A DNA stretch of 62,560 nucleotides, filler included, from Hausera hauseri (Eukaryota): assembly GCA_046269625.1 (NCBI GenBank). It is 11 parts of 11 records of this genome, joined end to end, with 100 filler letters (N's around TTAATTAATTAA, not from the genome) between each part and the next. Parts side by side here need not be neighbours in the genome. Positions count along the whole stretch, not along the records: positions 1 to 4,489 come from JBJURY010556896.1; 10 more parts are not named here. The stretch is one strand, 5' to 3'. Under the pieces are notes generated by a model. That model was not told where the DNA came from. It worked only from the letters and a program-made list of their open reading frames with translations, and searched no databases. Both the position numbers and the translations under genes were made by a program. Position 1 is the first letter of the stretch. Every line of letters begins with the position of its first letter. This document shows, in pieces, positions 1 through 56,299 of the stretch.

Positions 1-939
1 AAAACAATAAATATATGGGCCGGGTGATATTTACTTGAGCAGTTTCGCTCGGTGTTTTGTACGTGTCCGAATCAAGTCCAATAGAAGCCAGTAATTTTTT
101 ACGGTCTCCGCCAACATACACGGGTTCGGTTAGATCCGTTAAAATATTGATTCGATGAAATGCTTCGCAGAGACATGGTTTGTGTTTAGCAACCACGGAC
201 CGTCCTCCGCCGGTTTGACCGAATTCTCGTTTCTTAAAACCCAGATTCCGTTCCAATAGTTCAACAAAGGAAAAATATGTAACATTGTCATGTAGTGTAA
301 ACGAAATACGACCATTAGAGTTTAATTCAAATGTCTTTAGAGCCAATTTAGCTATAACCTTGATGTTTGCGCACAATTCTGTTTCCGTTTCAGTAAGAAA
401 AGCAGTTCTTTTTGCATGAGAGTAAAAAATTCAGTCTTTTGCCAGTTCACTGTAATATCGGTGGTTTTCATGGAAAAGTTCTATTCTTCACTAATTATAC
501 TCTGTCTACCGAGCTGTAGACCTTTCGAGCGCACATTGACAGATTGAAAACCCCAAGCCTAAGCGTCGGCTTGTAATTGAAATTGCAATTCAATCGGATG
601 TTTGTGTTTTAGAGTCAATTGATTGTTTAAATGAAAAATATGTACCAGGAAATATTGCCGCTTGTAATTGCGAACGTGAAATATTCCATTAGAGTCTCGG
701 ACTAACTGCAAACGATTAGAGGCAGGAGATTGTCTTACTGGAGTATAGTATATTCCACAGTTCTCACGAATTGTTATTGGTGAAAATGTAAGCGTCAATT
801 CCGCCAAAGCCACTTCCCAGGCTCCTTGGCGTAAGTCGAGCGGCTGGTCCAACGCCATGTTAAACCGTTCAGTGGTATTGTTGTTGTTGTCATGTTCTGA
901 TAATCTGTTACTCTCAAGTACCAAGTAAATACTCATCAC
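1..939 (-). pseudogene. Polinton minor capsid (penton-like) protein, truncated at contig edge
   Basis: N-terminus MSIYLVLESN...FNMALDQPLDLRQGAWEVALAELT fits the Polinton minor capsid pattern (YLxLPSN...LxxPxxLxGxWEVGLxE). In-frame stop at 559-561, with similarity to 52077-53013 continuing beyond it. Confidence 0.8.
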
Positions 940-2045
940 TCAATCTGCGATGCAAATATCCAACTCGGTGTATTGTATTCGTGCCACGTCACCAGATATT
1001 GTTTATTTGAACCTTTGCCGCGTGAACGCAGAATTTCCTGAATACGATATACATTAGGTTTTTCCGACAGTACGTGCAGTTCTTGTTCGTAGAATTTACC
1101 GCATATTTCCTCACCGTTTTCATCCTCTAAAACGTACATGACAGGTGTTTTTTCCGTTTATTGCCGAAATTCGGAAAACCTCGTCGCTCCAGTTCTTATT
1201 GAAATTCTTAATGAATGGCGTCGTACTTATTTTCAAAATACGTGCGTAAGCACTGATTTTATATTTTGGACGTTTAACTGCCTGTCGTTGTCGGTTTTGA
1301 TAAAACCACATCTCCACATCATCGATTACACCCACCGGCCGTAATCCATTGATGCCACGATGTGTCGAATGATTGTATGCATGAATAACATCCGGCAGTA
1401 CATCTACCCAGAATTTGTTTAGGTGACCGTGCAATATTTGATTAAATAGTTCAAGGAGTGCAGATTGTATTGGAAAAACACCGAGTAGTGATTTACGCCG
1501 AACCGTTTCAAGACCGCTGCAACGTGGGCGTTGCAGAATTCCTTACCCAAATCCGTTTGTAAATGCTTTGGCTGTTGTTATTCTTATTGTATCAGTGTCT
1601 GAACAGCGTCGGCAATATCTTTACCGGATTTAGATTTCACGGCAATTGCACACGCAAACCGACTAAACACGTCAACGCATGTCAGCACGTACAGATACCC
1701 ATCGTTGAATCATTTCCATCGTTGAATCATTTCCATTAAATCCATTTGTCATACGTTATTTACACTGGTAGCACGGCATGCACGAGTTGGAAACCGCCTT
1801 CTTATCTGTTTGTTTTGGCTGTATGCTAACTGTTTCCCGAGCCAACGTTTGGTCTGTTGCCGAGTCTGTTTGACAGTCTTTGCTAGTTTGTCAACGCCGG
1901 TATACCCGACGAAATCACGAGGATCGAACCACACGTCGCCCACCGTTGTCGTCGGTGGTGTTGCTTTTGCTTGTATTACAACAATTTGAACGAAACGTAA
2001 ATGAAAGACTCGGTAAACTGGGAGAGAAAGATGAAAAACATGCAC
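936..2045 (-). pseudogene. Polinton c-integrase (rve) with C-terminal chromodomain
   Basis: WFDPRDFVGYTGVDKL, QMDLME, YVLTCVDVFSRFA, LQTDLGKEF, WVDVLPDVIHAYNHSTHRGI, NWSDEVFRI, GKFYEQEL, then chromodomain YRIQEILRSRG...YLVTW...SWI. Broken by stops and frameshifts. Confidence 0.9.
1699..1732. repeat. 17-bp tandem duplication (CCATCGTTGAATCATTT x2) within integrase
   Basis: Directly visible. Not present at the homologous position in copy B. Confidence 0.85.
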
Positions 2046-2087
2046 CCATATCGCCGAACCATCATATACTTACCGTCATTGTTTGTA

Positions 2088-2459
2088 CTAAATTGTTAAA
2101 CCAATGAATCCACCCAGTAATGAAATGACAACCGGTAGAATTGCACCAAGGAATCCGCCATCTTGCTGGTACATGGCTTCTCGTTTCAGTCGTTTACTAC
2201 GGGCGTTGGCAAGGCCAATTAGTCGCTTTCGATACTTTTGTAAATTCCGCTCTCCACTACCAATGTCAATGTGACACACAACGATATTGTACAAAATTTG
2301 AATCAAATCGTCCACAACAAATTGCGGGAATGATCGCAACATGTTTCGCTTATATCTTGTAGATGCCTTGAGCAAAGCAATAAAGTATGGCTGAATATGT
2401 TTTAATCGCATTTTTGGACGTGTTGATGCTGAAACGTAATTGTTTATAACCGTTGACAC
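2088..2459 (-). CDS. Conserved small basic Polinton protein (PW-like) with C-terminal GGFLG amphipathic segment
   Basis: ALLKAS...LIQILYNIV...LQKYRKRLIGLAN...QQDGGFLGAILPVVISLLGG. Typical Polinton ORF lying between ATPase and integrase. Confidence 0.7.
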   Translation of the reverse strand: MSTVINNYVSASTRPKMRLKHIQPYFIALLKASTRYKRNMLRSFPQFVVDDLIQILYNIVVCHIDIGSGERNLQKYRKRLIGLANARSKRLKREAMYQQDGGFLGAILPVVISLLGGFIGLTI

Positions 2460-2614
2460 TGAGACGGTAATTTGCGTCTAGCTGCTGCTTTTGTTGTTCG
2501 AAGCACAAAAGTTATTAATCGCTTGGCTGTAGCAGTTCGTTTTGTTACACGTTTCTTGCCGGGCAACCGCTTGGTAGGTTTACGTTTAACAATTGTTTTT
2601 CGGAAATTCTTCAT
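2444..2614 (-). CDS. Small K/R-rich putative core/DNA-condensing protein (56 aa)
   Basis: MKNFRKTIVKRKPTKRLPGKKRVTKR...AARRKLPSQCQRL. Homologue starts at 50374. Confidence 0.5.
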   Translation of the reverse strand: MKNFRKTIVKRKPTKRLPGKKRVTKRTATAKRLITFVLRTTKAAARRKLPSQCQRL

Positions 2615-2623
2615 TTTATCACA

Positions 2624-3281
2624 ATCATGTCGTCGATTTTCGAATTTGTTTATAGACACATACACCTTTCTTATTTGAAATATCTGTTTGTACACGCATG
2701 TTATCGGTATACTGCTGTATAAAGTGAATAAAGAGATATCCATGCGATTTGTTCGTAACATCATGCTATGCATCTACCCAGTAGGCTAAATTGTGAGAAA
2801 ATGCTTGTCATGCAACATAATCAATGATAGTCTGATCACGGTGATTTTTGAACAACACCAAATAGTATACGTTTAGATTTCTTGTTATATGCTGTCTTAC
2901 CTGATGGAACATTTTTTTTGTAATGAAAAGAACCGTCACATCACGGTATCGAGCAATCTTCGTAAACAGGTTGTTGAAGTCCGATTGTTTCGCGGCTTTC
3001 TGAAATAAATCGTCAATGACAATAACGTCACTGTTGCGTAATCTCTCAAACCACTTCTCATCCAACCCACCTATAACCGTCATGGATTTCAGTTTACAAA
3101 ATTCCCGATGTGTCAAACCAGACTCACCATTTTTACAAACATCGTGATGCCAGTAAATGTTATTGTACCGCGGCGAATAGAACATGTCACTGTAGTTTTG
3201 CAACTGTTTACACAAAAATTGTGTGTTACCACTTCCAATGGGGCCTAAAATCTGGAAAATTGCATCATTCTTCAGCTTCAT
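2624..3281 (-). pseudogene. Polinton DNA-packaging ATPase (FtsK-HerA/A32-like)
   Basis: Degenerate Walker A GPIGSGNT, Walker B VIVIDD, FTKIARYRDVTVLFIT and YLVLFKNHRD. Premature stop at 2808-2810. The 3' end is approximate. Confidence 0.88.
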
Positions 3282-3316
3282 CTAAATAATAATATAATCT
3301 TTCCTCACATGATTTG

Positions 3317-3347
3317 TTTATAATCATGTCACAAGCACATATAAATA
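3317..3347. promoter_or_regulatory. Back-to-back TATA boxes (putative bidirectional promoter for ATPase and TBP-like gene)
   Basis: TATAAA on - strand (3317-3322) and TATAAATA on + strand (3340-3347). Both are conserved in copy B (49696-49701 +, 49676-49683 -). Confidence 0.5.
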
Positions 3348-3373
3348 GCTACAGTATAAAAACTGTTTCCATA

Positions 3374-3805
3374 ATGTTAGCTAATATCAATTATCTCGGA
3401 TATGTTACCCAGTGTGACATTAACACACAACCTTTTAATCCATGGAAGCCGAGGCAGTATATCCTCAAGTGTCCACCGGATTTTACATGCATAGTATTTC
3501 AATCGGGAAGGTGTCGTATTATGGGTTGTCGCAAACCAACCACAGCTGACAACAGTAACAGTAAACTACTTCCATTCGGAGTTGTCATTGACCAAATACA
3601 ATCAATAACGGTATCGACTCAGTTAGGCTGTCCATCAATAAATTTATACAAATTAGCAATGACCACTGAATGCACGTATGAACTTGAACTGTTTCCTGCA
3701 CTGAGACTGACATTGTTTTGCCAATTTTGAGTCAATGTGTTTAGCAGTGGAAAAATTGTTGTACTTGGTATTCGGACAGTGAACTATGAATCGATCATTA
3801 ATTAA
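3374..3805 (+). pseudogene. Minimal TATA-binding-protein (TBP)-like protein
   Basis: Repeat 1: LANINY...TCIVFQSGRCRIMGCR. Repeat 2: IQSITVS...INLYKLA...YELELFPALRL...*VNVFSSGKIVVLG. Compare TBP YEPELFPGL...LIFVSGKIVLTG. In-frame TGA at 3728-3730. Confidence 0.85.
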
Positions 3806-3859
3806 ATTAAAAACCACAAAAATATTTCAGCGAATCAAAATAATGTACTCTGCACAATA

Positions 3860-4489
3860 ATGACAAACTACAAATACTATTCCCATGCTCACTCAGACAC
3901 TACTACCATGGAAGACGATGATAAAACGATTCAACTCATTGATGATGATGACGATGATGGTGGTTGTGACAATGTTGAAAGTTCAGACTGGTCGTGGTTG
4001 TTTGGCTACAGAAAGGACAAATCTAATGTCAAATTGCTGGAAGCGAAAACACAACCTGCCCAACAGGTATAAAAATGGAATTGCCTTTAGGACGATTATG
4101 ATGTCGATTGCCTAGAAACGAAAAAGAAACTTGCTCAGAAATCACCAGCACAAAACCGACGTTAAAAAGGCAAATGGTAATGATTGGAATACGTGAACGA
4201 AAATCAAAACCGTCGCGCCAAACATAGACACTTTTATCGAAGCGAATTTTTTGCAAGTATGAAATGCAATTTCTTCAAATATCCGTTCTCATTTCATTGA
4301 ATGATCCCGTGTTTTTATGCGCACCCAAGTACAGCTATCGCGTAAAATGGCTTTCGGGTGAAAATTTGGATAAACTTTCTGATGCTCTAATTCAACTAAA
4401 CGTGGATTTAAAGTTGAACGAAACGACCGTGCAACAGCAATCTGTCGTTTTACCGCCTCAGAAAACGAAATTGTTTGATTTTATCGGTC
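3860..4489 (+). pseudogene. Unknown Polinton ORF(s): acidic DWSWLFG region and ISLNDPV...LSDALxQLNxDLKL domain
   Basis: Both peptides are conserved in copy B (48438-49120). The acidic part is in the same frame as the TBP-like ORF. Confidence 0.55.
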
Positions 4490-5157: not shown

Positions 5158-8100
5158 TCAGACGTTGGACATTTCCGATTTCAATTTGACAGTTAATTTC
5201 CCACTTTTCCACGGTTGTTTGAGTAGAAGAGGATGGAAATTATCCGGAAGTGGACGACTCATTTTATCGATCGATACGACTAAACAGAATTTGTTGAGGT
5301 CATCATTGGAATACTGAGGTGCGCATGGATTCCTTTGTAGTGCCGTATCGTTTAGTTGTTGAACGATGAGTTTGATAACGTTCCCAGTCGTTGTTTGAGA
5401 TGTTAATGATATTTTAACGGATGTTCCTTCGAGTAGACCACACGGATAACCGGCATAAATACGTAGGGTACCTTTTGGGATTTGTTTTCGTGGAGGGGTA
5501 GCAACATGATTATCGTCGACATCAATGGGCTTATCATGGATGTCATTGATGTGAGAGTCCGTTTTGTTGATGTCATTAACGGGGCTATTGGATTTGGATT
5601 TATCTGATCGATTTTTGTGAATAGGTGATCGACGAATAGGACTTCGGCTGGGTCGTTTCAATAACGGAGAAGCATCGGAATCACTCGATGAGATATTCCT
5701 TAATGAGGTAGGACTGACACTATCTGATGGAACATTCAAGTTATATATATCATGTTTGTCGGACAGTGAGGTGCTGGAACTGCCCCATGGATTCGATTCT
5801 GGACAGTGTATTTCTGTAAAAAGAACTGTCTGAGATGATGCATCAGTGTTTACCACAGTCTGTAGAGGGATAGTCAAGAATGATGAAATCTGCTTATCCC
5901 TGCAGTTGTTAATGACATCAACGGACCAGCGCATAATTTTGCAGTACTGTTCCAATTTATTTTGAATATCCTGAAATTGTTCTAAACGCTCTTTGCTTTG
6001 GTCAATTTCATGCTGATCGAAACCTTGCCGTAAACTCTGATAGGCCAATGGTAACAAAAGGTCCAAACATGAACTCAGTGTTGACCAAGACGAGAATGAA
6101 CCATCTTCAGATAGATGAGCGTAAAAATGGTAAAATTCAAAGGCATGCAGAGGGACCCATTCGTAATCCAATGGTAGAATAATTTCACTACCCGGAACAC
6201 CACAAAAATCTTCAAGTGCTGGTACGATTAGTATTATTCGAACTCGTGGCTTTATCCACAAAACTTCTTCCAAATACAGTCGACAATGTTCAATATCGGG
6301 TAGTTTTAATTTTAAATTAACTTGTAGTTTCTGCCACGTTTTGACAATTGCACTCTGAAATTTTAAACATCGTTTGTCTGTCGAATTATTGGGAGTCTCT
6401 GTCGAATGTTTAAGCGAAAGTATATGGCTCCATTCATCCTTGTCCACGTGCCAATTGTCGCGAATTTTAACAATCGGTATTGTGTTTGGATTAAACAAAT
6501 GCTGTTGAATGTAAAGTTGATCGAGTGTACTTTTAAAACGGGCATAACCCAGATAAAGTCCATCTTCCATTGTATGGGTAATTCGTTTATTAAAAGCTAG
6601 ATAACTATCCATCTTGCCGTAGAGTTCTTCTTCGAGACCGCTTTGTGAAGAGACTGAATCGTTAATATTGCCCGTCGATTTGGTTATTTTTGAGCCGAGT
6701 GTCCATTTGAGACCAGCAGGTAGAGTAATGTGTTTAGCAACGGAAACAAGTCTACTTAACACAATTACACTGTAATTCGTCTCATGTATGACACCAGAAT
6801 ACACAAGTCCGAGATCTGTCGTACCAAGTGTGAGTTGCAATTGCAATGCAGCGAATATTAATTTCACCCTTATCTGCATGCTAGCCGGAACTTGAATCCG
6901 TCCAAGAACCTCCACCATTAATTTCAAATCGGGTTTATTAGCTAGAAGTCTCATAAACCAAACTATTTCAACATTAATAGCTTGTAGACTGGGTTGTTCT
7001 TCATCAACCAAAACGAATGGTAATTGGTCTTCACCAAAACTTAACACCTTCTCCGTATCTTGTGCTTTAAAAACGAGACTCAAATAAAGACCATGTTTTG
7101 GTTGACGAACAAACTTACTGGACGACGAAAACAAAGCCTTCAACAAAGATTTTCGACCGGTTATTCCAGGAATGTGTAACTTGTTCGACTCATTCTGTTC
7201 ATTGTTATTACCTTGAATGATTTTGTTATGGCTTCGAATACTCGACAACCAGAATTGTAGTTGCTGTTCCATTTTCATTTCTTCGACATCAAAACGTGTA
7301 ACATACCACTGCTGGGGATGGGAACAACGCCGACTGCCTGTAAATTCTGAAGATTGTGTGATAACCTCAGTCCAACAGGACGGTGCTGAACATGATGGAA
7401 CACTAGCAACTTTGGCTCCGGCACCTTTAAGATTCATTGAACTCACTCGAACATAATAGTCAACTTGTGGAGATAGATCACAAATCTGATATCTACCAAT
7501 GGGGAATTTTGTCCGAACAATAATTTCATCATCAATTTCACTGAAATCCGCATGTTGAGACCACTCGATTTTATATCGAGTTACGATACTATCCGATGGG
7601 GGCGAAACAGTCACGAGCAAAGAATTCAAACCGGCAACTTCAAGCGTTACCTTTCTGGGCGGAGAACCGGGTTTCATTTGTTCAAAGTTCGATTTCAGGG
7701 TATTAATCTGTCGATGTAACGAATCGAGCACTTCCACATCACGATTGATAGATCCGATACTACCACCGTACATGTGGCTGCATAATTCCAACATTTGACT
7801 GGTACAATTATTGGCAACAATTGTCAAATGTCGTTGGAGCAGCTTTGGGTCGTTTTCGAAACAAACGCTATTCCGTCCACCGCTTTCAATGAGTCGCTTT
7901 GCCAGAGTCGAATAATTATAGAGCATCGCAACGTCAAGCGGAGTAAGATCGAAATTGTTATGGTTATTTACAATACCGGGATGGCTGTTTAAAAGCGATT
8001 CAACAGTTTTCAAGTCATTATTATTTACAGCGGTAAAGAGCATTCCAATTTCTCGTTGCATCAATTTCCCATCGTTCCAAACCAGACTCAAATCGTCACG

Positions 8101-8613
8101 GAGTTCGGTAAGATTTTTTGCACTACCGGAACGCGGCATTCGTTTGTTAAATGATCGAGAAATTTTCATTAAATTCGGTTCGTTCATTTGGACGGTTTTT
8201 AAATCATCTTGCAATTTCTGACTATGATCAATACTGTGTGAACGATTAGTTCGAGAATTGAGAACAAACACCGTTGTGTCACTGTGTTTTCGATGGTATT
8301 CGTTCGTTCGATTAGCAACACCTGGACTTTTATGTCTGACACGATATTTAATCTTACCTGGTGGCGAAATGGCTCGAGACTTTTGAAATTGAGATAGTTT
8401 TCGTTCGCGAGTTTCTGACTGATTATTTGAATCAGTAGCAATCGCCGTTACTCTATTCGTTAACTCGGATTCATGAACAGTTTTATTCATTGAATCGTGT
8501 GTGTTTTCATTCGAACTGGCATTGGTGTTGTTCAATTCAATGCTGGAAGCAGTATCGCTTTTACCGAATCGTTTACGTTTATCAGTCAAATAGGTGAATG
8601 ACTTTCCGAGCAT
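5158..8613 (-). CDS. ANKFN1: Ankyrin-repeat and fibronectin type III domain protein (ANKFN1 / wide awake family) with C-terminal Ras-association domain, intronless
   Basis: 1151-aa uninterrupted ORF. ANK repeats (LFTAVNNND...LTPLDVAML), FN3 (VTRYKIEWS...DLSPQVDYYVRVSSMNLKG...PSCW), HGLYL and DGLYLGY blocks, RA-like GTLRIYAGYPCGLLEGTSVKISLTSQTT...VIKLIVQQLN. Confidence 0.88.
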   Translation of the reverse strand: MLGKSFTYLTDKRKRFGKSDTASSIELNNTNASSNENTHDSMNKTVHESELTNRVTAIATDSNNQSETRERKLSQFQKSRAISPPGKIKYRVRHKSPGVANRTNEYHRKHSDTTVFVLNSRTNRSHSIDHSQKLQDDLKTVQMNEPNLMKISRSFNKRMPRSGSAKNLTELRDDLSLVWNDGKLMQREIGMLFTAVNNNDLKTVESLLNSHPGIVNNHNNFDLTPLDVAMLYNYSTLAKRLIESGGRNSVCFENDPKLLQRHLTIVANNCTSQMLELCSHMYGGSIGSINRDVEVLDSLHRQINTLKSNFEQMKPGSPPRKVTLEVAGLNSLLVTVSPPSDSIVTRYKIEWSQHADFSEIDDEIIVRTKFPIGRYQICDLSPQVDYYVRVSSMNLKGAGAKVASVPSCSAPSCWTEVITQSSEFTGSRRCSHPQQWYVTRFDVEEMKMEQQLQFWLSSIRSHNKIIQGNNNEQNESNKLHIPGITGRKSLLKALFSSSSKFVRQPKHGLYLSLVFKAQDTEKVLSFGEDQLPFVLVDEEQPSLQAINVEIVWFMRLLANKPDLKLMVEVLGRIQVPASMQIRVKLIFAALQLQLTLGTTDLGLVYSGVIHETNYSVIVLSRLVSVAKHITLPAGLKWTLGSKITKSTGNINDSVSSQSGLEEELYGKMDSYLAFNKRITHTMEDGLYLGYARFKSTLDQLYIQQHLFNPNTIPIVKIRDNWHVDKDEWSHILSLKHSTETPNNSTDKRCLKFQSAIVKTWQKLQVNLKLKLPDIEHCRLYLEEVLWIKPRVRIILIVPALEDFCGVPGSEIILPLDYEWVPLHAFEFYHFYAHLSEDGSFSSWSTLSSCLDLLLPLAYQSLRQGFDQHEIDQSKERLEQFQDIQNKLEQYCKIMRWSVDVINNCRDKQISSFLTIPLQTVVNTDASSQTVLFTEIHCPESNPWGSSSTSLSDKHDIYNLNVPSDSVSPTSLRNISSSDSDASPLLKRPSRSPIRRSPIHKNRSDKSKSNSPVNDINKTDSHINDIHDKPIDVDDNHVATPPRKQIPKGTLRIYAGYPCGLLEGTSVKISLTSQTTTGNVIKLIVQQLNDTALQRNPCAPQYSNDDLNKFCLVVSIDKMSRPLPDNFHPLLLKQPWKSGKLTVKLKSEMSNV

Positions 8614-8945
8614 TGTGCCATAAAAAACAACAGATGATGTGCTGATGCATGTGCGATTTGCACACCGATAAAGTTCAATTAATGAATATCCGATAGAAAT
8701 CGGTTAGTCTGTCAGCAAATATCGAGTTGTGTGTTGGGAAGTTCAATTCGAGCTAAAAAACAGAAAACTTGAGATAACATTTTAGTGTAATGCAAAAGTT
8801 AAGATTAAAATCAAAATCAAAATCAACTTAATAAATAATATAGAANNNNNNNNNNNNNNNNNNNNNNNNNNNNNNNNNNNNNNNNNNNNTTAATTAATTA
8901 ANNNNNNNNNNNNNNNNNNNNNNNNNNNNNNNNNNNNNNNNNNNN

Positions 8946-40800: not shown

Positions 40801-41289
40801 GGCAGATTCAGCGAAGCTCGTGGTTGTTGAGAGTTTGGTAAGCGATAGATATTACATATATTTGTAGATTGATCATCTGAGAAAGATTAATTTGGATCCG
40901 ATCCACCCCGAAAGCGAAAGTGAATCATGAGATGTATGATCGAATGTTCGTGACATGTTAAGAGTAAGAGTCGGAAGGATATATAGTAAGACCTTGATAG
41001 ATGAAGTAGAAGTCAGAAGTACTAAATAAGGAGGATAGAGTTGTATAAGAGCTGTCCTGTGTCGCTGAGTGCAGCTGTTATGGTTTTTATATGCTGATTA
41101 TTGCTAAAAACAAGAAAGGAAAATTTCTTTGAGGTAATTTTGGGAAAAGGTTCGTATGCGCGGAGGGCTTTGGCGGTTGCATTTGGGCTAGGGAGAGGTT
41201 TGAGCGTGCCGCCCGGTGAGTAGTGGCAAAATCATCTGAAATCATTTGCCAAATCTGACATGTTCTCCCCACTGGATTATCCTTATTGA

Positions 41290-42300
41290 TCAAATCGATG
41301 CCGGTCTCATCGACACCTTGTGAATGTCTGTTCTTTTTTGCAACGCAGATTGTTGCCGAGAGACTTTGAGAGGACATTGTGAAAAATCGTAACGAATTTT
41401 GAGCCCGTTGACTGATTTTCCTACTCCAGAAATTGAGAAGACTGACAGTGAAATATCCTCCACTGATGAATTTCTCCACGTCCTTATTCAACAGTGGCCA
41501 AATGACCTCATAATTCGGTTTTTTCTGACGTAAGAAGTTAGTAAATCGGAACGTAGCCTCAGTATGTTTTTGTAATCGAGTTTCAACACGAGTGTGTAGA
41601 AATTCTAAGCGGGAATATTGTGGGCCAACAGTGGTTCTCACAGAAAGTACTGTTCGATAGTGCCCCAATCGAGACTGTGGATAAACACGTCGACAACACT
41701 GTTGGCATCGACTAATTCGATGTCTTTTTTTGAATCTCGAGACCTAACTGGCTAATTTCCGCGGCATCAAGTGACAAAATAATCAGACGAGGAAAGGTCG
41801 GGTTTTTGATTAGTTCTGTTTTGAAAGCTCGACAGAGGTGTGACAACAGATAAACCATAAGTTTGGTGTCGTCTTGGCTGAGTAATTCCAAGTCTTTAAA
41901 CAACGAATTTTTTTATTTGCTTTTTCAGACTGTTGCACAAGCTACGATAACGACTGAGGTTGGGGCCGTTGATCTTTGCGACTTTAATAAAGTAAAGCAA
42001 ACAGTAACCCACATGCGATTGTCGCATTTGCATTTCTGAAAATGGTGATAATAGTAATTCTCTTTTTTTGTCTTGATTACTCATCGAACAAAAATTTCTG
42101 AACAACACGAATATAGGATGTGACAAAAACGCTTTGAGCTTTTCTTCATTGGAATTATCCGGAAACAATCGACGTTCGAAATAAGGGTAATAAATTTCAC
42201 AGATAACTGCTGCTGTTTTTCCAGCAGTACCTAGATAATCAAAACTGTCGTCATTCAAAATTGCGATGACTGCCTGTTCCATTTCCTCGTACAAGTCCTA
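41290..42300 (-). pseudogene. INTS3: Integrator complex subunit 3 (INTS3/SOSS-A) C-terminal part, frameshifted fragment
   Basis: HPIFVLFRNFC, EMQMRQSHVGYCLLYFIK, DLELLSQDDTKL, SLDAAEISQL, LRQKKP and FTVSLLNFW parallel remembered INTS3 blocks (PLYLIFRNLC, QPKIGYHLLYYL, CQEDDVRL, IDSAQLQEL, LRREKP, FTTSILRHW). Confidence 0.75.
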
Positions 42301-44231: not shown

Positions 44232-46799
44232 ACCTGGCCGTGACAAATTTTGACAGACTATTGAACATGGAACATGATCAATTCATCGAAAAGCGTATAT
44301 GTTGTAAGTAGTGTCCTGTGTGTCTGCATGGATTCACCTCGGAAACAACGTGGGAGAAACATGTGACACTATGCAGACAAAATTCATCGGGAACAACAAT
44401 GTATATCGTGTCCGTCCAAAAGGAACTGAGGTTCACTGATTGGTTTAAAACAGACAGTCCGGCATATGTAGTGTATGCCGATATCGAAGCTATCTTACCA
44501 CGGCACAACATATGTGACTTAAAAACATGTTCCAATCGCCGTCGATATGTTGGTTATCTCAATAAAAGTCGGAGGTCAACCACAATATTACATTTTTCAT
44601 GGATGAAACTGCGTACGCGATTTCCTGCATCAGTTGGAAACAATAGTAGAAACGGAAATCGCACCCCTGTACAGTAGAAATGTCAATAAACCTTTGATGT
44701 GGTCAAATGAATATGAACGCCTGACATTTATGGCCACAGATGAATGTTACCTCTGTTACAAAATATTACCGTTTCATGCACAGGAACGGCTCATACCAAA
44801 TCACGATCATTTTACCGGTCGATATCTCGGAGTCTCATGTAATTTATGCAATTTTGCAAGGCATGTGCGGCCATTCCTATCGGGGGTATTTCATAACTTT
44901 AGTGGTTATGATTGTCATTATATTTTGAAATGGGTAATAAACGGATTTTCTCACTGGGAACTATCCGTAATTTCGACTACGATGGAGAAATACCTGTCAC
45001 TGTCTGTACGTATAAACCGGTTTCAGGAACGATTCCTTGATTCGCTGCAATTTCTCAATGATTCTCTGGCAAAGCTGGTGAATGCCTTGCCATATGTGCC
45101 GCTAACAATGACTCAGTTCCCTGTACATATTGCGCATAGCAAGGGCATATTCCTGTATGACTTTGCGATATCGTACGAGCGGCTCCAGATAGCAGATGAA
45201 TTACCACCGCAATAGCCGGTATCACAAAATATGAATATCACAGAGTGCAGTCCTTTTGGACAAAGCTCGATTGTAGAAACCTGATGAAGTACATGCTTCC
45301 CTATCTGAAATTAGACGTGTACCTGTTAGCTGATGTGTTTTACATCTTTCAAGCTAAAGCTTTAGCAGAAGATTGGCTGGAGTCACTCAACTTTTACTAA
45401 ATACCCGGAATGAGTTGGGCATCAGCTCTGATGTCATTGGATCAGGTTATTGAGCTGTTGCAAAACCTGAAAATTTACCGAATGTTGGATGTTGGTATTT
45501 ACGACGGCATGGCATTTGTCAACAAGCATCGGGTCCGTGCTACCGACACCACATCACTGCTGTATATTGATATTAACAACCTGTACGGCTGGGCGTTTTT
45601 GCAACTGTTGCCGTACAGTTCATTTGAATGGGTAGTCGACAAGCAGGACCTGGACACAATACCCGAAAATTTGTCTAGAGTAGACACAATAGCAGGAAAC
45701 AGTTCAATCGGATACCTGATGGAAGTCGATCTCGTGATACCGGATGAGCTGCATTACTTTCTGGATGAACTGCCGGTCGCAGCAATTATCCAATGTCCAC
45801 CCGGCTGGAAGGTGAAGAAGTTGTTTATGACGCATGTACCCAAGCAAAATTACATATTTCATTGGTGTCTGTTGCAATTTCGGTGTACGCGTCACACGGC
45901 TACATCGCACAATCCCATTTGCTCAGGCTCCCATATTCAAGGCGTACATAGATAGAAATACGGAGAAACGAACCGCAGCTTGTACAAAGTTCCAAAAGGA
46001 ATACTACAAGATGAAAAACATTTCCCTGTATGGAAAAACAGTAGAGAATCTGAAAAAGTGGATCAATGTACGCCTATGCAATAGGGAAAAGCGGTTGGTC
46101 ACGTACACGAGCAAGGAACAGTTCAGGCGGTCAATTCACGTTGTTCGTGGATTGGTTGCCGTGCTTTTAAACAGAGAAGAAGTCATACTGGTCCGGCCAA
46201 GTTATATAGGACAAGTGGTGTTGGATCTGAGCTAGTTGCTAATGTATGAGCTGCAGTATCGCGATTTGGCACATTACCGTCAAATGTTCGGCGGCGTAAT
46301 CAAGACCAGTATAATTTCCGGTGACACGGATAGTTTTTTCTTGGAACTGGAAAACGTCAATCGCGAAAAATTACTGCAGCAAATGATGGAAGACGTATAC
46401 TCTACACATCCAATTACCTATAGAATCATCCATGGTAAACGCCACCACAAACAAAATCGGCTGATTCAAGAATGAAAGTGAAGGTCGGATTCAGTATAGG
46501 GAATGGATATTTCTACGACCAAAGTGTTATAGCCTTTTAACCGTCTGTGGATCTAAAATGCGCGCCATAAAGTTCAACTGGCGCAGACGAAAATAAACCA
46601 CGGTGATTATTGCCGTGTCTATGAAGAAAAAGTAGAAGGACAACAAAAGGCTGTTGTGTCACAAACGATCATCCGATCGATTGCGCACCAGCTGTATAAG
46701 CTGTACAATGCAAAAGTCTCTTTATGATGCAGTGATGATAAGCGAAAGTGGGTGGAGCAAAATGACAGTAGAGCGTACGTACATTTTCGTTTGAAATAA
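44232..46799 (+). pseudogene. Protein-primed family B DNA polymerase with C2H2-like finger and endonuclease-VII-like insert
   Basis: CPVCLHGF...H...C, VVYADIE, CYLC...HDHFTGRYLG..CNLCN, FHNFSGYDCH, FLDSLQFL, KGIF, YIDINNLYGWA, KMKNISLYGK, IGQVVLDLS, GDTDSFF, LRPKCYS and DDKR. Confidence 0.95.
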
Positions 46800-47199: not shown

Positions 47200-47709
47200 A
47201 ACAGAGAAATATATTTATTTATTTGCATTAAATATAAGCAATACAAAGCAGTAAATATTTTTGTAAGCACAATGTGGTCTACCATCATGATACGGACATC
47301 AAATATTGTCAGGTACCCTTACCAGCGAGTTGCTCGATGTTGTTGAATACGTCATCATTCGCAACTCGGGAAAATGTGAATGTGTTTGTGTAAATTTTTA
47401 GCCGTCAATTTAATCTTTAATGTAAAATATTGTATTTTCAATGTCAAAACAATCACAAATGTCTCGCAAGATACATGATACGCAAAACACTTAATTGCCT
47501 TTGTGCAACTAAAGTCCATGATGACGTCGTATGAGATATCCATTGGTAATTTTTGCCTTTTCTGTCAACTGATTCCACGTAACGGCCGGCTTGAATACGT
47601 ACACAAACGCTTTGAAAATGTTATCGACGTCCACAATGCATAATTCCTTTATCATGTACCGGGAATTATCATCTTGGAAAGCTTCAATATCTATAAATTC
47701 TATGGCCAT
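47200..47709 (-). pseudogene. Putative DEDD-type 3'-5' exonuclease-like protein
   Basis: FIDIEAF (ExoI-like DxE), IKELCIV, FKP..W..L....TNGYL...HHGL. Stop at 47509; the 3' end is uncertain. Confidence 0.5.
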
Positions 47710-47784
47710 TACTTATTATATACAAAATTATTTTTTGTTTATAACACAAACAAACAAACTAATTATTTTTATTATGATCACAAA

Positions 47785-48256
47785 TCAGTAAACATAGGTG
47801 GTTTTTTTCATATCACCAAAGCCAAATTATTTGCGTTAATTTCGTGTTGCTTCATTGACACAAAATAGTTCCCATTGTTCCGCTGACATTACACTGAATT
47901 CCGCCTCTTCACAGCGGAAGAAAACCGATTTCTGCAATTGCACAGCCTTTCGCAAAAGCATACGGTTCCCCGTATTGGTTTTTCAACAACACCTTAACTT
48001 CACCACGAAAGTCAGAATCATTGACACCGCCACCCGCAACAGTCAGTCAGACCTTTTCCAGTCCGCTTTTCAATAAACGTTGGCCGTAGTAACCGGGTGG
48101 AATCGCCAATCGAATCCCAGTCGTTACGTATTTTATTGTGCTGTACGAAGTTGTCGTAGTGATATTGGAAAACACATCGTAGCCCGCACTGCTTGCCGTA
48201 ACACATTTTGGTACACTAGAACTTTTAGCTGTCAAAATAATCTTTACATCATTCAT
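47785..48256 (-). pseudogene. Trimeric dUTPase
   Basis: SAGYDV, TGIRLAIPPGYYGQ...KSGL, then after a stop GGVNDSDFRGEVKVLLKN, AIAE and a degenerate GFG motif. Confidence 0.9.
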
Positions 48257-49120: not shown

Positions 49121-49189
49121 GTAATGTCTGAACGAATATGGTAGTGGTATTTGTAGTCCTCTGACCAAAGTCTATTACTTTGATTTAGT

Positions 49190-49645
49190 AAAACACTTAT
49201 ATGGTGTTTAATTTGATTAATAGTCGTCTCATAGTTGATTGACCAAATTCCCAATATGACAATTTTTCCACTTCTAAACATATTGGCACAAAGCGGACAG
49301 AATAGTGTTAGTCGCTATGCAGGGAACAGTTCAAGCTCATAAACACATTCGGCAGCCATTGCTAATTTGTGCAGAATAATTGATTGTGGTAGTGGTGGTG
49401 AGAAATCTAACTGAGTCGTTACTGTTATTGGTTGCATTTGGTCAATTACTATTTCCGAATGGTAGATGTTTGTCATTTGTGATTGGTTTTCAACAATCCA
49501 TAATACAACACTTTCCCGATGGAAATATGACGCACGTAATATCCATAAAACATTTGTGAACATAATAACTCCGCCTCCATTGATTAAACGGCAGTGCATT
49601 AATACACTCAGTAATATGTCCGCAGTAGTTGATATTAGCTATCAT
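49190..49645 (-). pseudogene. Minimal TBP-like protein, copy B
   Basis: MIANINYCG...TCVIFPSGKCCIM, frameshift, then QMQPITVT...LHKLA...YELELFPA*RLTLFCPLCANMFRSGKIVILG. Confidence 0.85.
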
Positions 49646-49709
49646 GATTGATTGAAACAATGTTTATGCTGCATCTATTTATATGCGTAGGTGATTATAA
49701 ACAATATAT

Positions 49710-50371
49710 ATGAAAAATGCATCACCAAGGACAGAAAGCTGCAGAGTAGTGCCATTTTCCAGATTATAGGCCCCAGTGGAAGTAGAAAAATGTACTTTGT
49801 TTGCAAATTGCTGCAGAACTACCGTGAAATATTCAAATCGTCGCTGTTCAATCATATTTTCTGGCATCAGGGCAGTGGTGATGATAAATAGTGCGGTTTG
49901 AAACATCAGGAATTTTGTAAATTAAAATCCGTTACGGTAATATATAATTTTGATGAGAACTGATCTGAGAGATTATGCAACGGTAATGGTATTATCATTG
50001 GCGATTTATTTCAGGAAGACGCAAAACAATCGGACTTCAACAACCTTCACCGTGGTGTGACGGTTATTTTTATTAAGTAAAACATGTTCCATTAGAGCAG
50101 ACAATATCGAACATGAAATCTAAACGTAAACTATTTGGTGTTGTTTAAAATTCGTCGTGATCAGACTATCATTGATTATGTTGCACGACAAGCATTTCCT
50201 TACAATCGAGCCTACTTGATAGATACATATTATGATTCTACGAAAAAACCGCATGGATTTCTGTTTATTGACTTTACACAACAGTGTTCCAATGACATGT
50301 GTGTACGAACAGACATTTTCAATCAAAGAGGTGTATGTGTTGACAAACAAATTCGAAAATCGACGATATAA
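49710..50371 (+). pseudogene. Packaging ATPase, copy B
   Basis: IFQIIGPSGSRK, IIIGDLFQ and LVLFKIRRDQ...VARQAFP...KPHGFLFIDF...VRTDIF. Confidence 0.88.
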
Positions 50372-50373
50372 TT

Positions 50374-50917
50374 ATGACAATAAAGAGGAATTTCCAAAAA
50401 ACAATTGGTATAGGTAAACCTACCAAGCGGATGTCACGCAAGAAACGTGTATCAAAACGAACCGATGCACTCATGCGATTAATTAATTCTGTGCTTCGAA
50501 CAACAGCAGCAGCAACTAGATGCAAATTACCTTCACATTGTCAACGGTTATATGCAATTACGTCTCATCAGCATCAATACGTCAAAAAATGTGATTTAAA
50601 CGTAGTCAGCCGTACTTCATTGCTTTGCTCAAGGCACCTAGGAGACATAAGCGAAACATGCTACGATCATTCCTGCAGTTTGAAGTAGACGATTTAATGG
50701 AAATTTTGTAAAATATCGTTGTCGGTAACGTTGACATTGGTAGTGGGAAGCGAAATTTACTAAAGTATCGAACACGACACATAGACCTTGCCAACGCTTG
50801 TAGTAAACGAGTGAAAAGAGAGATAATGTACCAGCAAAAAGGAGGATTCCTTGGTACAATTCTACCACTTGTCACGTCATTACTGGGTGGACTCATTGTT
50901 GGAACAGTTCAGTATAA
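50374..50917 (+). pseudogene. K/R-rich small protein plus PW-like protein, copy B
   Basis: MTIKRNFQKT...SRKKRVSKR; QPYFIALLKA...YQQKGGFLGTILPLVTSLLGG. Confidence 0.65.
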
Positions 50918-50920
50918 ACA

Positions 50921-52080
50921 ATGACAGTAAATATATGGCGATTTGCGATATGGGTGTTCGGTTTTTATCTTTCTGTCCCAGTTTACCTTATCTTTCATTT
51001 ACATTTCCTACAAACTGTTTTAAAGCAATCAAAACCGACACCATCGCCAAGAACGATGGGCTACGTGTGGTTCAATACACGTTATCCCGTCGGATATACT
51101 GATGTCGACAAACTGACAAAGACTGTAAAACAGAGTCGGCGACAAACCCAACGTTTGTTAGGAAACCGTTAGCATGAAACCTAAACAAACCTATAAGAAG
51201 GCGGTTTCTAACTGGTGCATACAGTACTGCCGGTGTAAATAACGTATGGAAAATAGATCTGATAGAAATGATTCTCAACACCAGCACTAACCATGGGTAT
51301 CGGTACGTGCTGACATGTATTGATGTGTTTAGTCATTTTGCACGTGCAGTTGCTGTAAAATATAAATCCGGTAAAGAGATTGCTGACGCTGTTCAGACAC
51401 TGATACAACAGTAACAACAACCGAATCATTTACAAACGGATTTGGGTAAGGAATTCTACAACGCTCACGTTGCAGAGGTCTTGAATCTTTTCGGCGTAAA
51501 CTACTACTTGGTGTTTTCCTAATACAATGCTGCACTCGATTTAACTGACCATTGCGCGGTCTCCTAAACAATTTCTTTACAAAGCAAGGCAACAAATCTG
51601 AGTAGATGTACTGTCAGATATTATTCGTACATATAATCATTCGACACACTGTGGCATCATTGGATTACGGTTGGTGGATGTAATCGATGATTTGCACATG
51701 TGGCTTTACCAAAACCCAACACAACAACAACGACAACTAAACGTCCCAAGTACAAAATCTGTGATTACGTACGTATTTTTAAGTTGCATACAACACCATT
51801 CATTAAGAATTCCAATCAGAACTGGAGCGATAAGGTTTTCCAAATTTCGGCAATCAACACAAAACAAACATCTATTATGTACGTTTTAAAAGATGAAAAT
51901 GATGATGAAATACGTGGCAAATTTTACGAAAAGGAACTGCAAGTACTACCGAAATAACCTGGTGTGTATTGTATTTATAAATTTATGCGTTTATGCGACA
52001 AAAATTCGAATAAACAATATCTCGTCAAGTAGCACGGCTACACTACACCAAGTTGGATTTTTGCATCGCAGATTGAGTGA
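50921..52080 (+). pseudogene. Polinton c-integrase with chromodomain, copy B
   Basis: VGYTDVDKL, WKIDLIEM, YVLTCIDVFS, LQTDLGKEFYN, NWSDKVFQI and GKFYEKELQ. Confidence 0.9.
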
Positions 52081-53133
52081 CGAGCATTTATTTGGTACTT
52101 GGTAGTAAAAAATTATCAGAACATAACAACAAAAATACCGCTGAACGGTTTATTATGGCGTTCAACCAGCCACTCGACTTACGCCAGGGAGCCTTTGGCG
52201 GAATTCACATTTACATTTTAACTAAAAACAATACGTGGGAACAGTGGAATATACTATACTCTACTAACACAATTTCCTGCGTCTAGTCGTTTGCAGTTAG
52301 TCCGAGACTCTAATGGAACATTTCACGTTTGCAATTAAAAGCGGCAATATTTCCCGGTTTACATTTTTATTTAAACAATCATTTGGTGCTAAAACCCAAA
52401 CAACCGAGTAAATTGCAATTTAAATTATTAGCCGACGCTCAAGCATGGGGTTTTCAATCTGTCAATGTGCGCTCGAAAGATTTACAGCTAGGTGGACATA
52501 GCATAATTAATGAAAAATTGAACTTTTCCGAAAGCACCATGAAAACCACCGATATTACAGTGAACTCGCAAAAGACTGAATCATTCTTCTACTCTCATAC
52601 AACAGTAACTGTTTTTCTTACGGAAACGGAAACAGAATTGTGCGCAACCATCTAGATTGTATTTAAATTGGCTTTGAAGACATTTGAATTAAACTCTGTT
52701 GGTCGTATTTTGTTTACACTACATGATAATGTTACATATTTTGTCTTTGATGAATTATTGGCACGAAATCTGGGTTTTAAGAAACGAGAGTTCGGTCAAA
52801 CCGGCGGCGGACGGCCCATTGTTGCTAAACACAAACCACGTCTCTACTAAACATTTCATCCAATCAATATTTTAACGGATCTAAGCCAACCCTTATATGT
52901 TGGCGTAGACCGTAAATAACTATTGGCTTCTATTTGACTAGATTCGGACAAGTACAAAATACTGGGCAAAACGGCTCACGTAAATATAATCCGGCTCATA
53001 TATTTATCGTTGTCTCACAATGTTGTAAACATTATTTCCTTGTATATAGTAGACGAATTTTGGAAAGCCATTAAATTTCTGTTTGGAACCAAGACACATT
53101 TGATGCTACATTTTCGTCGTCGTCGTCGATAAT
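52077..53133 (+). pseudogene. Minor capsid (penton-like) paralogue 1
   Basis: SIYLVLGS...NQPLDLRQG at the start; NILTDLSQPLYVG...IYLSLS...ISLYIVDEF...THLMLHFRRRR at the end. Confidence 0.78.
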
Positions 53134-53177
53134 AAACAAACTGTGTCATCACTATCATCATCATCATCATCGAGATC

Positions 53178-54242
53178 ATGAGTATTTGCATGGTGTTGCC
53201 GAGCAGCAGTTGTCCGACGCCTCGTCCGAACAATTCAGACATTGAATACGTTGTGGATTGGAACAATCCTTTGGATTTATTTGAAAAATGGGAGGTTGCA
53301 CTGACAGAATTTAACTTTTCCTACGCACCGGTGACATTGGAAGGTCGTACGATAATAAAGTTCAACAAAACTGTTATTAAACCAAAACACATTCTTGTCT
53401 CCTAACACTTACTAAAAATAAAATAAAAGTTAGAGAATCGGCCATTTGCACGAATAGTACAAAATACGATTTTTATTTTAGGGAAAAACATATTTTATGG
53501 CAGATTTTGAATTTACTGTTACCTTTGAGTCCTCGGATATGGCATAGTAATTTGGATTCAAAAATACAGAGTAAAAATATAAACATATTAAAAGTGAATA
53601 TGTATGTTGCTTTAAGATTATTTCCCGTATATTACCAGACAACGGTGAAATTTACCTATGCAGCCGAAAGAGTGTCAACATCATATATATATATCGATTG
53701 GTGACAATGTCTACTGCGATTCTGTAGCACATCTCTCTCAATAATTTTCCAATCAAAAGTACAAGGAGATGTTTAAAGTTTTCGAGTCAGATGCAAGTGG
53801 GTACATTAAATTTGAACTGGCTAAGAATTTTGTCGACATTTCATTAGACAAAGCTTAGGCCATAATATTGGGTTTTAAAAAACAGCGGTTTGAGGAACTG
53901 AATACGAAAACGGCTGCACATGTTGCAACATTTACACCCAAATTGAAAACGGAACTAAGTCAAATGTACATTTACGTGAATGTCACCGAACCGATTTTGG
54001 TCGGTGGAGTACGTGTACCGCTACTCCGTGTAATTTATCCCGAAACCAGCAAGTATACTGCCGGTGACAATGGCGCTGTCAAGCTCGATAATCCAATATA
54101 CCTACATGTGGCATCTACATCTATAAACAATGTTGAAGTGAATATCCGATGCGACGCGGGCTAACTTATTGAATTTCCGTACGGTACCACAGCCAGTCTA
54201 ACTCTTCATTTCCGTCGAATACAACAACAACAACATGATTGA
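53178..54242 (+). pseudogene. Minor capsid (penton-like) paralogue 2
   Basis: MVLPSSS...NPLDLFEKWEVALTEF; QMYIYVNVTEPILVGGVRVPLLRVI...NPIYLHV...INNVEVNIR...LTLHFRR. Confidence 0.85.
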
Positions 54243-54596
54243 TTCTGAAATCGTTTCCATTTACAGTAAACCCCAGCAGGGCAGAGAACTGCTGTATTTT
54301 GTTGGTAAAAAGTATGACCCTGGATGGTTGCGTACATTGGCACGTTTAGCATTTCCGCTGTTGAAGCGTATATGGACAGTGGCAAAAAAAGAGCACAGGC
54401 TGTAATATATGAAAACAAATAGATTTTGCCATCGCTAAAGCAACACGTTTCGACAGAAATTAAAAGCGCTTTACCGGGAGTCGTCGTATCAGTAAAAATA
54501 CAATTTATTGACAGTAGTTTGAGAAAACGAAAACATGGCAGATCAGCTAGCTTTTAAACTATAAACCAACGTCGTCGTCATACGATTTTCGATTGA
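54235..54596 (+). pseudogene. Polinton small protein with amphipathic helix (putative membrane-active/cement protein), not in the ORF track
   Basis: Hand translation: MIDSEIVSIYSKPQQGRELLYFVGKKYDPGWLRTLARLAFPLLKRIW, frameshift, then basic tail RKRK...RRRHTIFD. Lies between penton and major capsid, as is usual. Confidence 0.6.
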
Positions 54597-55803
54597 TGGC
54601 ATCCGAAAAATCTAAATTGTGTATATTTGACAAAGACGTGCCACAAGTTGTTATTGACAAAGCATCATTTGAGGAAATCTACCCCGTTGATTTGGTTTCA
54701 ACTGACGAGAACATTGACATTCAATTTAACATTAAGGCATCGGAAAATTAATATTTCGATTTGATCTATAAGCTACTCTATGTAAAAGTTATTGTAAAAG
54801 GGATGCATCAACAGTTTACGCTGCAGCAGACACTATCACGTCGGCCAATTACCTTTTTCTCGTACTGTTCCAGGAGGCTTCAGTGACTCTAAACAGCGTC
54901 AAAACCGAACGCAACGCCAGTCTATACAGTATTAAAGCACTCATTAAAACGGCTTTGAATTACAGTGCAGACACGAAAATGACTCATTTGACAAAAACCA
55001 TTGGATATGACGCCACTGAAGCAAACCGTTAGGCATGGGCGGCATAATGAAAAGCACTGACAATGTGTGGACCGCTGTACTTTGACTTTTTTGATAAGCC
55101 GCAATACCTACTGCCCGGTGGTAAAGCCATGAAATGCTCAAACGTAGTCTTTTAATTGAAAACAGCAGTTGCAAATATCAAACCCATACTAAAAATTACC
55201 GAGGCGCAATTATACGTACGTCGTGTAAAGTTAGAACCATCTGTACTTATGGGACATCGGTTGGGCTGGGAAAAACAAAATTCCTGTTACCCAATACAAC
55301 GTACAAAACTCGTGTTTTACATCATAACCAAAAGTTCAATTGCGTTTTGTAAAGATGCACTATTTGGCGCCATGCGATTGCAGAAATCTATGCTCATTAC
55401 ATTTCAAACGACTGTTCAACAAACGGGCAGTTATACCACCGATTCGGAAACGTTTCCACATAGCAATATGAATTACATCAATTTGGGTCGAAATGCAGAT
55501 TTCGTTGAGACATACAAGCAGAATTTCGATACCGGCAATTATGTTTGCACATATATGCAATCTATCGTGCGAAACATGGGTTTTTTGTACATAAATGTCA
55601 ACAATGAAATGTCGATGGATTTGTACAAGTCCACCTATTCATTTTTCACCTTTTTCCTGGCTCCAGATTATTACGTTGAACAGACTCAACTACCTGTTGG
55701 GAAACGTGCGATTGGAGTTTCACTTTGCTACTACCGTGATGCATTTTTATGGTATATTTGATGACTATGTTTAAATAAAGAAAATTAAACCGTCATTGTA
55801 TAA
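54596..55803 (+). pseudogene. Polinton double-jelly-roll major capsid protein
   Basis: MASEKSKLCIFD..PQVVIDKASFEEIYP...IQFNI...YFDL...LYVKV; GPLYFDFFDKPQYLLPG; LKITEAQLYVRRVKLEPSVLMGH...YPIQR; GNVRLEFHF. Confidence 0.85.
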
Positions 55804-55864: not shown

Positions 55865-56299
55865 ATGATTAAATCACATTCTTTTACATTTAGTTCCACT
55901 GAGCTTTGTCACTACGGAGAAGTGCTCTTGGGCGTGAAATATCGTGACGTGTTTGCACTGAACTGTATGCCGCGTGATTTGCGAACATCTTGCTGCTTTA
56001 TTGTCAATCCCCACACTTCATCGTTGCCAGGCGCACATTGGATTGCTGTGTACGTCCATCCGACCAACGTCGTCAGAGTATTCTATTCGCTCAGATTTTA
56101 CTGTTCGTCATTGTTAGATTCTCACATTGAACGGCAATCATTATACCATGTTAAATATAATCGAGTTCACTATAAATATTCAATGACTATACTATGTGGT
56201 TTACATTATAATCACTTTTTTAAAATATATATGGTTATTATTTTATTTCTGTTGTTGTTTTCTTGCGAACAAATCATGAAAAATAATATGATATTTTAA
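55865..56299 (+). pseudogene. Adenain-like (C5) cysteine protease, degenerate
   Basis: IVNPHTSSLPGAHWIAVY...FYS...LCGLH. His and Cys are kept; the expected Asp (FDS) and oxyanion Gln are substituted. Confidence 0.8.

Follow-up and report, generated by a model that had tools for sequence, protein, structure and literature searches.

A dead Polinton gene in the Hausera hauseri assembly is a copy of a conserved mini-TBP that likely acts as a late-gene promoter factor

We know of no explanation for the way in which Polintons turn their capsid genes on, and the question bears on whether these elements are real viruses with a life cycle. It is raised in concrete form by a frame at 3374..3805 (+) in a 62,560-nucleotide stretch of the Hausera hauseri assembly GCA_046269625.1 (hereafter the window), which a first-pass annotation took to be a minimal TATA-binding protein (TBP) encoded by a Polinton/Maverick element and perhaps used to redirect host Pol II and TFIIB to the element's own promoters. 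Is this frame a TBP, does it belong to a gene that selection maintains, and which DNA would its product read? We conclude that the frame is a remnant, now dead, of a conserved mini-TBP gene of Polintons whose product, judging from sequence patterns across the family, likely acts as a late-gene promoter factor.

Two fossil copies of a Polinton

The window consists of 11 separate contigs joined by N44-TTAATTAATTAA-N44 spacers, so the two copies of the element, copy A on contig 1-4489 and copy B on contig 44232-56781, do not form a single locus, and nothing can be read from their facing opposite ways. They share 78% identity over ~4 kb. Run X1 contributes 28,720 contigs that map onto contig 1-4489 and run X2 another 1,279, and the element is therefore highly repeated in its host. 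No RNA data set was listed for 2400-4480, a result with no bearing on expression. Other contigs hold, by Pfam, remnants of Gypsy and BEL/Pao retrotransposons, the latter mainly an animal group, together with host-like genes, a content suggestive of an animal genome.

Mapping the proteins of related loci onto the window gave its gene map. The contig of copy B carries a protein-primed PolB remnant cut by the contig start (44234..46796, +; Pfam and mapping), a C2-family gene remnant (47239..47743, -), a dUTPase remnant (47894..48253, -; PF00692, E 3.6e-13), C3, the TBP, a packaging ATPase remnant (49736..50350, +; mapping), C4, an rve integrase remnant (51029..52074, +; Pfam and mapping), putative penton remnants in two partly repeated pieces (52404..54218, +), C20, a double jelly-roll major capsid pseudogene (54596..55783, +; E 2e-87 to the capsid of locus L008) and an adenain-type protease remnant (55874..56206, +; Pfam in relatives and mapping). 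The shorter contig 1-4489 holds the TBP-to-penton part of the element only: a putative penton remnant (68..930, -; cluster C7, named from its size and position, with no Pfam capsid match), an rve integrase remnant (939..1973, -; mapping), a packaging ATPase pseudogene (2646..3281, -; 56% to the L001 ATPase, E 9e-77) and, beyond the TBP, an acidic ORF followed by a C3-family remnant (3864..4419, +). The acidic ORF (C11) and C3 look like two exons of one gene, possibly spliced, as the relatives show GT...AG-like ends; the C3 cluster had no usable family in the Atlas.

The Polinton setting proposed by the first-pass annotation was thus recovered, with the Polinton/Maverick (adintovirus) set of PolB, rve integrase, ATPase and adenain protease all present as remnants on contig 44232-56781. 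Pfam supports PolB and the rve integrase in the window itself, and the adenain-type protease and PLA2X in relatives, while the L008 capsid homologue is predicted to fold as a double jelly-roll like the capsids of iridovirus, PBCV-1 and virophage (E 2e-15). Terminal inverted repeats were found neither in contig 44232-56781, which is partial, nor in six long related loci, and Pfam showed no RNA polymerase gene in the two element contigs.

As had been claimed, a TBP occurs at the same position in both copies, broken differently in each; it lies head-to-head with the packaging ATPase in both. The copy A pseudogene (3374..3805, +) has in-frame stops at 3728 and 3803 and retains the motifs VFQSG, YELELFP and VFSSG, and the copy B pseudogene (49183..49645, -) starts at 49645, has a 15-nt insertion relative to copy A, and is interrupted by stops at 49492 and, beyond a shift of frame near 49445, at 49317. 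Both copies are fossils, since the TBP is broken, the neighbouring genes are broken too and box sites (described below) have been lost in a complementary manner. Any inference about function therefore applies to the TBP family and not to these two dead copies.

Identity and fold of the protein

Read with an X at the break, the copy A frame matches PF00352 at E 2e-14, with 53.6 bits against a curated cut-off of 22.9, and all 35 PDB sequences that it matched contain TBP (best E 3.8e-7). An intact relative, P0002, was modelled at pLDDT 93; with this model all Foldseek rows listed at E<=1e-3 (ranks 1-44) were TBP-containing, and VIA-align superposed 147 of 149 residues on human TBP (Z 12.6, rmsd 2.8), the next non-TBP row scoring 6.9. 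Sequence identity to solved TBPs is 19-28%. On this model the family of the window gene has the two-lobed saddle fold of TBP, and the profile and structure searches agree in calling the frame TBP-like.

The description of the frame as a ~145-aa two-repeat protein held as far as its TBP-like nature is concerned. This length is in part a product of the stop at 3803; the nearest two intact relatives measure 149 and 160 aa. The first repeat appears incomplete because the model of the intact relative has no helix in residues 1-60. The predicted structure comprises ten main strands with helices only at 84-90 and 133-147; no helix of at least 4 residues precedes residue 84, and the N-lobe helices H1 and H2 are absent from the model.

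A conserved family with an altered DNA-facing surface

A word-seeded search limited to proteins of 78-251 aa recovered 26 relatives among 45 candidates, 24 of which, 144-170 aa long and 40-69% identical, align over almost the full query. A profile search gave 54 clusters at E<=1e-30; at 1e-10 the number was 572, cellular TBPs among them. In metagenomes a TBP relative is encoded by 125 of 258 pattern matches, and 80 loci were kept. These loci are mostly short and their gene order varies; among them the integrase occurs in 17, the capsid in 12, the protease in 11 and PolB in 7, and the linkage of TBP to ATPase seen in the window extends to the 26 that carry an ATPase. The patterns applied to IMG/VR recovered no relative of the mini-TBP, and the phage collection likewise gave none; alignments of the capsid and of TFIIB gave no match in IMG/VR, and that of the capsid none among phages.

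Median dN/dS is 0.18 (Nei-Gojobori; 18 non-independent pairs from 34 intact genes, each pair at >=70% identity with unsaturated synonymous sites), and the mini-TBP family, which resides in capsid-encoding Polintons, is therefore under purifying selection. This disposes of the idea that the frame is a host TBP retro-copy caught decaying in the element. Both window copies are indeed broken, but so are the neighbouring core genes, intact relatives are many and constrained, and the modelled relative shares just 19-28% identity with solved TBPs; we regard this explanation as refuted. In a tree of 51 rows, which is a quick tree only, a branch of 41 rows separates from the cellular and near-canonical TBPs with SH-aLRT 99, and the shortest TBP forms and copy A nest inside this branch.

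Residues were mapped on the plant TBP P0086 returned by the search and numbered as in yeast TBP, with N69 as the anchor; V203, where the alignment register is ambiguous, was left out of the counts. Like cellular TBP, TRF and TBPL (PF00352), the family has the saddle fold and keeps F116, F190, F207, N69 and the E186/E188 stirrup, all six residues being invariant in the 24 short relatives. Unlike cellular TBP, it is ~30 residues shorter, has no H1 or H2 in the model, carries Pro at F99 and has a polar DNA face. The residue calls of the first-pass annotation proved accurate: three of the four intercalating Phe are kept and the first is replaced, by Pro in copy A and in 24/24 intact close relatives, leaving the canonical four-Phe set incomplete, and the TFIIB-contacting stirrup persists as YELELF, with E186 and E188 in copy A and 24/24. 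Also fixed in 24/24 short relatives, along with F99P, are V71N, V122R, T124M, N159S, I194R and L205N, and K138 and K145 are deleted in all of them. P99, R122, M124 and N205 are fixed as well in 23/23 longer relatives that keep the helices (47/47 together). The basic patch of N-lobe helix 2 (the surface for TFIIA, Mot1, Brf1 and TAF1) is missing, as K138 and K145 are gone and the helix is absent in the model. The two stirrup glutamates are linked to TFIIB, and the N-lobe basic patch to TFIIA, Mot1, Brf1/2 and TAF1, in PMC7221094.

A box upstream of packaging and virion genes

The 92-bp spacer between the TBP and ATPase genes holds two classes of box back to back, a canonical TATA box TATAAATA at 3340..3347 (+), 34 nt before the TBP start, and a TATAAAC (consensus YATAAAC) at 3316..3322 (-), reading from 3322 and 41 nt before the ATPase start. 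Both are kept in copy B, at 49676..49683 (-) and 49696..49702 (+) respectively. Further YATAAAC boxes lie at 2648..2654 (-), 40 nt ahead of the start (2614) of a small basic ORF, and at 2442..2448 (-), 37 nt before the ~100-aa conserved gene C4 starting at 2411, both being altered in copy B, and at 50913..50919 (+), 37 nt before a small ORF preceding the integrase, this one altered in copy A. Of the four box sites between ATPase and integrase, one is still intact in each copy, another two survive in copy A alone and the fourth in copy B alone. Elsewhere in copy B the box stands at 54560..54566 (+), 36 nt before the major capsid start, at 47737-47743, 34 nt before the start of the C2-family gene, and at 53578 and 54122 in the putative penton pieces; a CATAAAC also occurs 23 nt before copy B's own TBP start. 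The raw count of YATAAAC in the window is that of chance (30 vs 27.8), and position alone is informative. As a separate observation, a small minus-strand ORF remnant at 46864-47140 lies behind a canonical TATAAATA, with TCAT ~29 nt downstream.

Across the related loci we counted boxes in dereplicated windows of -90 to +30 against shuffles. The highest-ranking 6-mer upstream of packaging and virion genes is ATAAAC (76/95 vs 8.2 in shuffles). The full YATAAAC lies upstream of the ATPase in 22/24 cases, C4 in 14/17, C2 in 14/18, PLA2X in 10/12, the capsid in 8/10, the penton in 8/14, the protease in 4/7, the integrase in 7/15, C20 in 1/5 and PolB in 1/3, with shuffle means <1 and no antisense matches in these ten gene classes. 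The TBP genes themselves show the other class: YATAAAC precedes 2/59 of them (2.8 expected) and canonical TATAWAWR 24/59 (7.4 expected). Canonical TATA is likewise found before the acidic ORF/C3 gene class in 5/8. Among accessory genes of the relatives, LRR proteins (C23; L029, L046) have YATAAAC in 5/5, and L070 encodes KilA-N/zinc-finger proteins (C21).

The box also keeps its distance from the coding sequence. With gene starts taken as the last Met before the conserved core, YATAAAC lies 32-129 nt (mostly 32-58) before the start in 93 of 109 packaging, virion and integrase genes; none of the 109 has a box only nearer than 32 nt, and 16 are without one. Out-of-frame ATGs are common directly after the box and fall ~4.6-fold further on (37/1953 positions at +7..27 vs 9/2185 beyond +27), which suggests that transcription starts near +28 to +32 of YATAAAC. 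The two classes differ here too, as TCA is found at +28..30 of 22/36 canonical sites (TBP, C11 and C17 genes) vs 8/113 YATAAAC sites, and no initiator peak follows the box in these 113 sites. We infer that YATAAAC is a promoter-like box and a candidate promoter. The proposal that the element has promoters of its own for its TBP thus gained a box that fits, with one amendment, as the likely target would be YATAAAC and not an ordinary TATA.

Two other identities for the box were tried and rejected. As a poly(A) signal it fails in that AATAAA upstream is only weakly raised or at chance (ATPase 10/24 vs 5.7; capsid 1/10 vs 1.9) and ATAAAC is preceded by T or C at 79/87 sites. As a poxvirus-style start motif it fails in that no gene has its box only <=28 nt from the start and out-of-frame ATGs abound immediately behind it.

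Co-occurrence of the box and the TBP type

In two held-out loci found via their ATPase and carrying the same TBP type (L081 and L082), the box precedes 9/11 late-class genes and neither TBP gene. Seven other Polinton-like elements, two with other TBP types and five without a TBP in the part examined, have it before 0/18 genes. Three loci whose TBP lacks R122/M124 (L077, L078 and L079) score 0/10 vs 86/107 in 27 other loci, 3 of which gave a blank R122/M124 read-out. One locus, L069, has the altered TBP yet shows the box before 0/2 genes. In 12 PolB loci from IMG/VR without a detectable TBP the box stands before 2/107 long ORFs. One of these 12, L098, is a complete 12.3-kb Polinton bounded by TIRs and carries the box before 2/8 core genes, one of the two overlapping a canonical TATA, which is a mild argument against the box being exclusive to mini-TBP elements. 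The ORF at L098:11376-11885 has a weak match to the PC4 coactivator (E 0.0034, below cut-off).

Because protein and box both mark one clade (SH-aLRT 99, quick tree), their co-occurrence amounts to about one evolutionary event, and because all positives fall in that clade the association is no independent evidence of binding. It follows that some other factor of the element or host might read the box, the mini-TBP and the box travelling together by descent alone, and uncharacterised neighbours common in the 80 loci, C2 (22/80) and C3 (19/80), would be at hand for such a role. However, the box has TATA geometry, C2 is itself found behind the box (14/18) and looks nuclease-like, and C3 was not seen in the long box-bearing loci L024, L050, L057 and L060; we hold this possibility to be quite improbable. 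The nuclease likeness of C2 comes from a weak Maelstrom/3'-5' exonuclease match (score 0.85) and is a lead only. C2 is a ~160-aa conserved gene that often adjoins the TBP; its Atlas clusters are unnamed and mostly arthropod, and it is doubled in L058, L060, L064 and L065.

Other Polinton lineages carry TBPs of other kinds. At L088:4708-5828 a TBP (PF00352 E 2e-18) adjoins a TFIIB-like gene (PF00382 E 7.5e-7, with a zinc ribbon) whose family has 47 relatives among 340 candidates; this TBP is without the first stirrup Glu, and no YATAAAC precedes 4 core genes. Near-canonical two-lobed TBPs that keep F99 are encoded at L085:2446-2997 and L079:1300-1812, with no YATAAAC. The TBP is head-to-head with the capsid gene in L085 and L088, and the L076 TBP has an N-terminal extension of ~130-150 aa with no assigned family. 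With a narrow, one-family Polinton TFIIB profile, no TFIIB-like gene was detected in the window or in 91 of 92 mostly partial loci, L088 being the only one to show it.

Proposed mechanism

In the scheme that we propose, transcription of the mini-TBP gene would depend on host TBP/TFIID acting at its canonical TATA and initiator. The mini-TBP would then bind YATAAAC, since in TBP it is the N-lobe that reads the 3' half of the box, and this lobe is rebuilt in a family whose box has there a C that TBP disfavours. In TBPm3, I194 and L205 are two of the three specificity-changing positions, and selection with TBPm3 disfavoured C in the downstream half, contacted by the N-lobe (PMC1636458). The protein would be expected to prefer YATAAAC over TATAAAAG and scrambled DNA. 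Its two kept glutamates would recruit TFIIB and Pol II, both presumably from the host, with a start ~28-32 nt downstream of the box, and a protein without N-lobe helix 2 would escape control by TFIIA, TAF1, Mot1 and Brf1. The outcome would be a two-step programme from one 450-bp gene, the canonical-TATA class being putatively early and the YATAAAC class late.

Only a single base separates YATAAAC from canonical TATA, and host TBP may therefore recognise it weakly. This opens a different role for the mini-TBP, as a decoy or repressor, sequestering TFIIB or silencing early or host promoters, the box being a weak TATA for host TBP. The two boxes of the TBP-less L098 suit such a role, as do the invariant TFIIB glutamates in a protein that has lost one intercalating Phe and several hydrophobic DNA contacts. 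But a decoy leaves unexplained why the DNA-face residues R122, M124, N205 and P99 are fixed (47/47), why the C of the box is nearly so, and why the TBP gene has a canonical TATA; we consider it unlikely. A mini-TBP that binds the box outside Pol II initiation, with Brf and Pol III or by bending DNA for replication or packaging, is very unlikely in our judgement: the Arg in contact with the same Glu is retained in Brf1 and Brf2 (PMC7221094) and KSHV ORF24 also aids DNA replication (PMC6541308), but the boxes are strand-specific and come no closer than a fixed minimum to the protein-coding starts that follow, and the family has lost the N-lobe basic patch, which Brf1 grips as well.

We therefore retain a mini-TBP that would activate transcription from YATAAAC. 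Stated more broadly, a widespread clade of animal Polintons would run a true early/late viral programme through a single 150-aa altered-specificity TBP that reads YATAAAC and relies on the host for TFIIB and Pol II. This would amount to a minimal orthogonal promoter-recognition system, with other lineages having reached separate solutions (a near-canonical TBP or a TBP-TFIIB pair); on balance we lean towards this wider proposal. If true, it would supply a natural altered-specificity TBP, informative about how TBP reads DNA and about which of its surfaces are dispensable for Pol II initiation. With a protein and its candidate box, the switching on of capsid genes becomes open to direct test using a single small protein and a site of 7 bp, and the box offers a quick sorting of Polinton genes into two expression classes.

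Comparison with known viral TBPs

Viral TBPs are already known, and the novelty that the first-pass annotation saw in a Polinton TBP is lower than it assumed. 'TBP' appears as a gene label in the legend to Fig. 5 of Starrett et al. 2021 (PMC8502044) and in the preprint, for MELD viruses with an adintovirus-like PolB, so a TBP-like gene in a mid-size Polinton-type genome is common to both. The difference is that theirs is a label in a legend, in a section on non-animal datasets, and the label alone does not establish that the family is the same. The paper's text holds no family analysis, residue pattern or promoter box, and its text supplement does not contain TBP or TATA. In the text of the openly accessible literature searched, we found no description of the mini-TBP family or the YATAAAC box, and none linking TATAAAC, TBP and Hoogsteen pairing. 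It is the residue pattern and box class of the Polinton mini-TBP that we did not find described.

The closest functional model is found in herpesviruses, where KSHV ORF24, EBV BcRF1 and HCMV UL87 are TBP-like proteins that work with host Pol II at a modified TATA ~30 bp before structural-gene starts (PMC6541308), a pattern that the box and its spacing here would fit. BcRF1- and UL87-type models are also weak fold matches of the mini-TBP. Yet the mini-TBP is not a member of the herpesvirus TBP-mimic family. Those proteins are large, belong to a six-member complex and make direct contact with Pol II, whereas the mini-TBP has ~150 aa and no extra domain, keeps the TFIIB glutamates and pairs with a box altered at its 3' end (C) and not at position 4 as in the herpesvirus TATT. 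The large Pol II-binding N-terminal domain is absent, as the close relatives measure 144-170 aa (within the 78-251 aa searched) and the model has the TBP fold end to end.

The mini-TBP resembles the Nucleocytoviricota TBPs (such as ASFV B263R-like, mimivirus and poxvirus), which are also among its fold matches, in its divergent fold and the loss of the N-lobe regulatory signature (PMC7221094). According to the same source, a TBP-like gene is accompanied by TFIIB in almost every virus that has one, with ~40% conservation of the first Glu among them; the mini-TBP differs in that both Glu are invariant and no TFIIB was detected, with a narrow profile in mostly partial loci. In the readable supplements of PMC7221094 that were searched, the terms Polinton, Maverick, adintovirus and virophage do not occur.

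Other observations

Nine of the related contigs with a Polinton-type ATPase (L081-L089) are filed within bacterial MAGs and are probably mis-binned eukaryotic or viral DNA. Outside the Polinton copies, the window contig 56882-62560 carries laminin-G domains, a remnant of a Monjiviricetes-type fusion glycoprotein and a ubiquitin-like domain on the minus strand, and is likely an envelope-bearing mobile element. An intact single-exon ORF of 1181 aa at 5158-8703 contains ankyrin, fn3 and RA-like domains and presumably resembles ANKFN1/wide-awake, and Ints3-like HEAT-repeat fragments, possibly a retro-copy, are present at 41090-42297.
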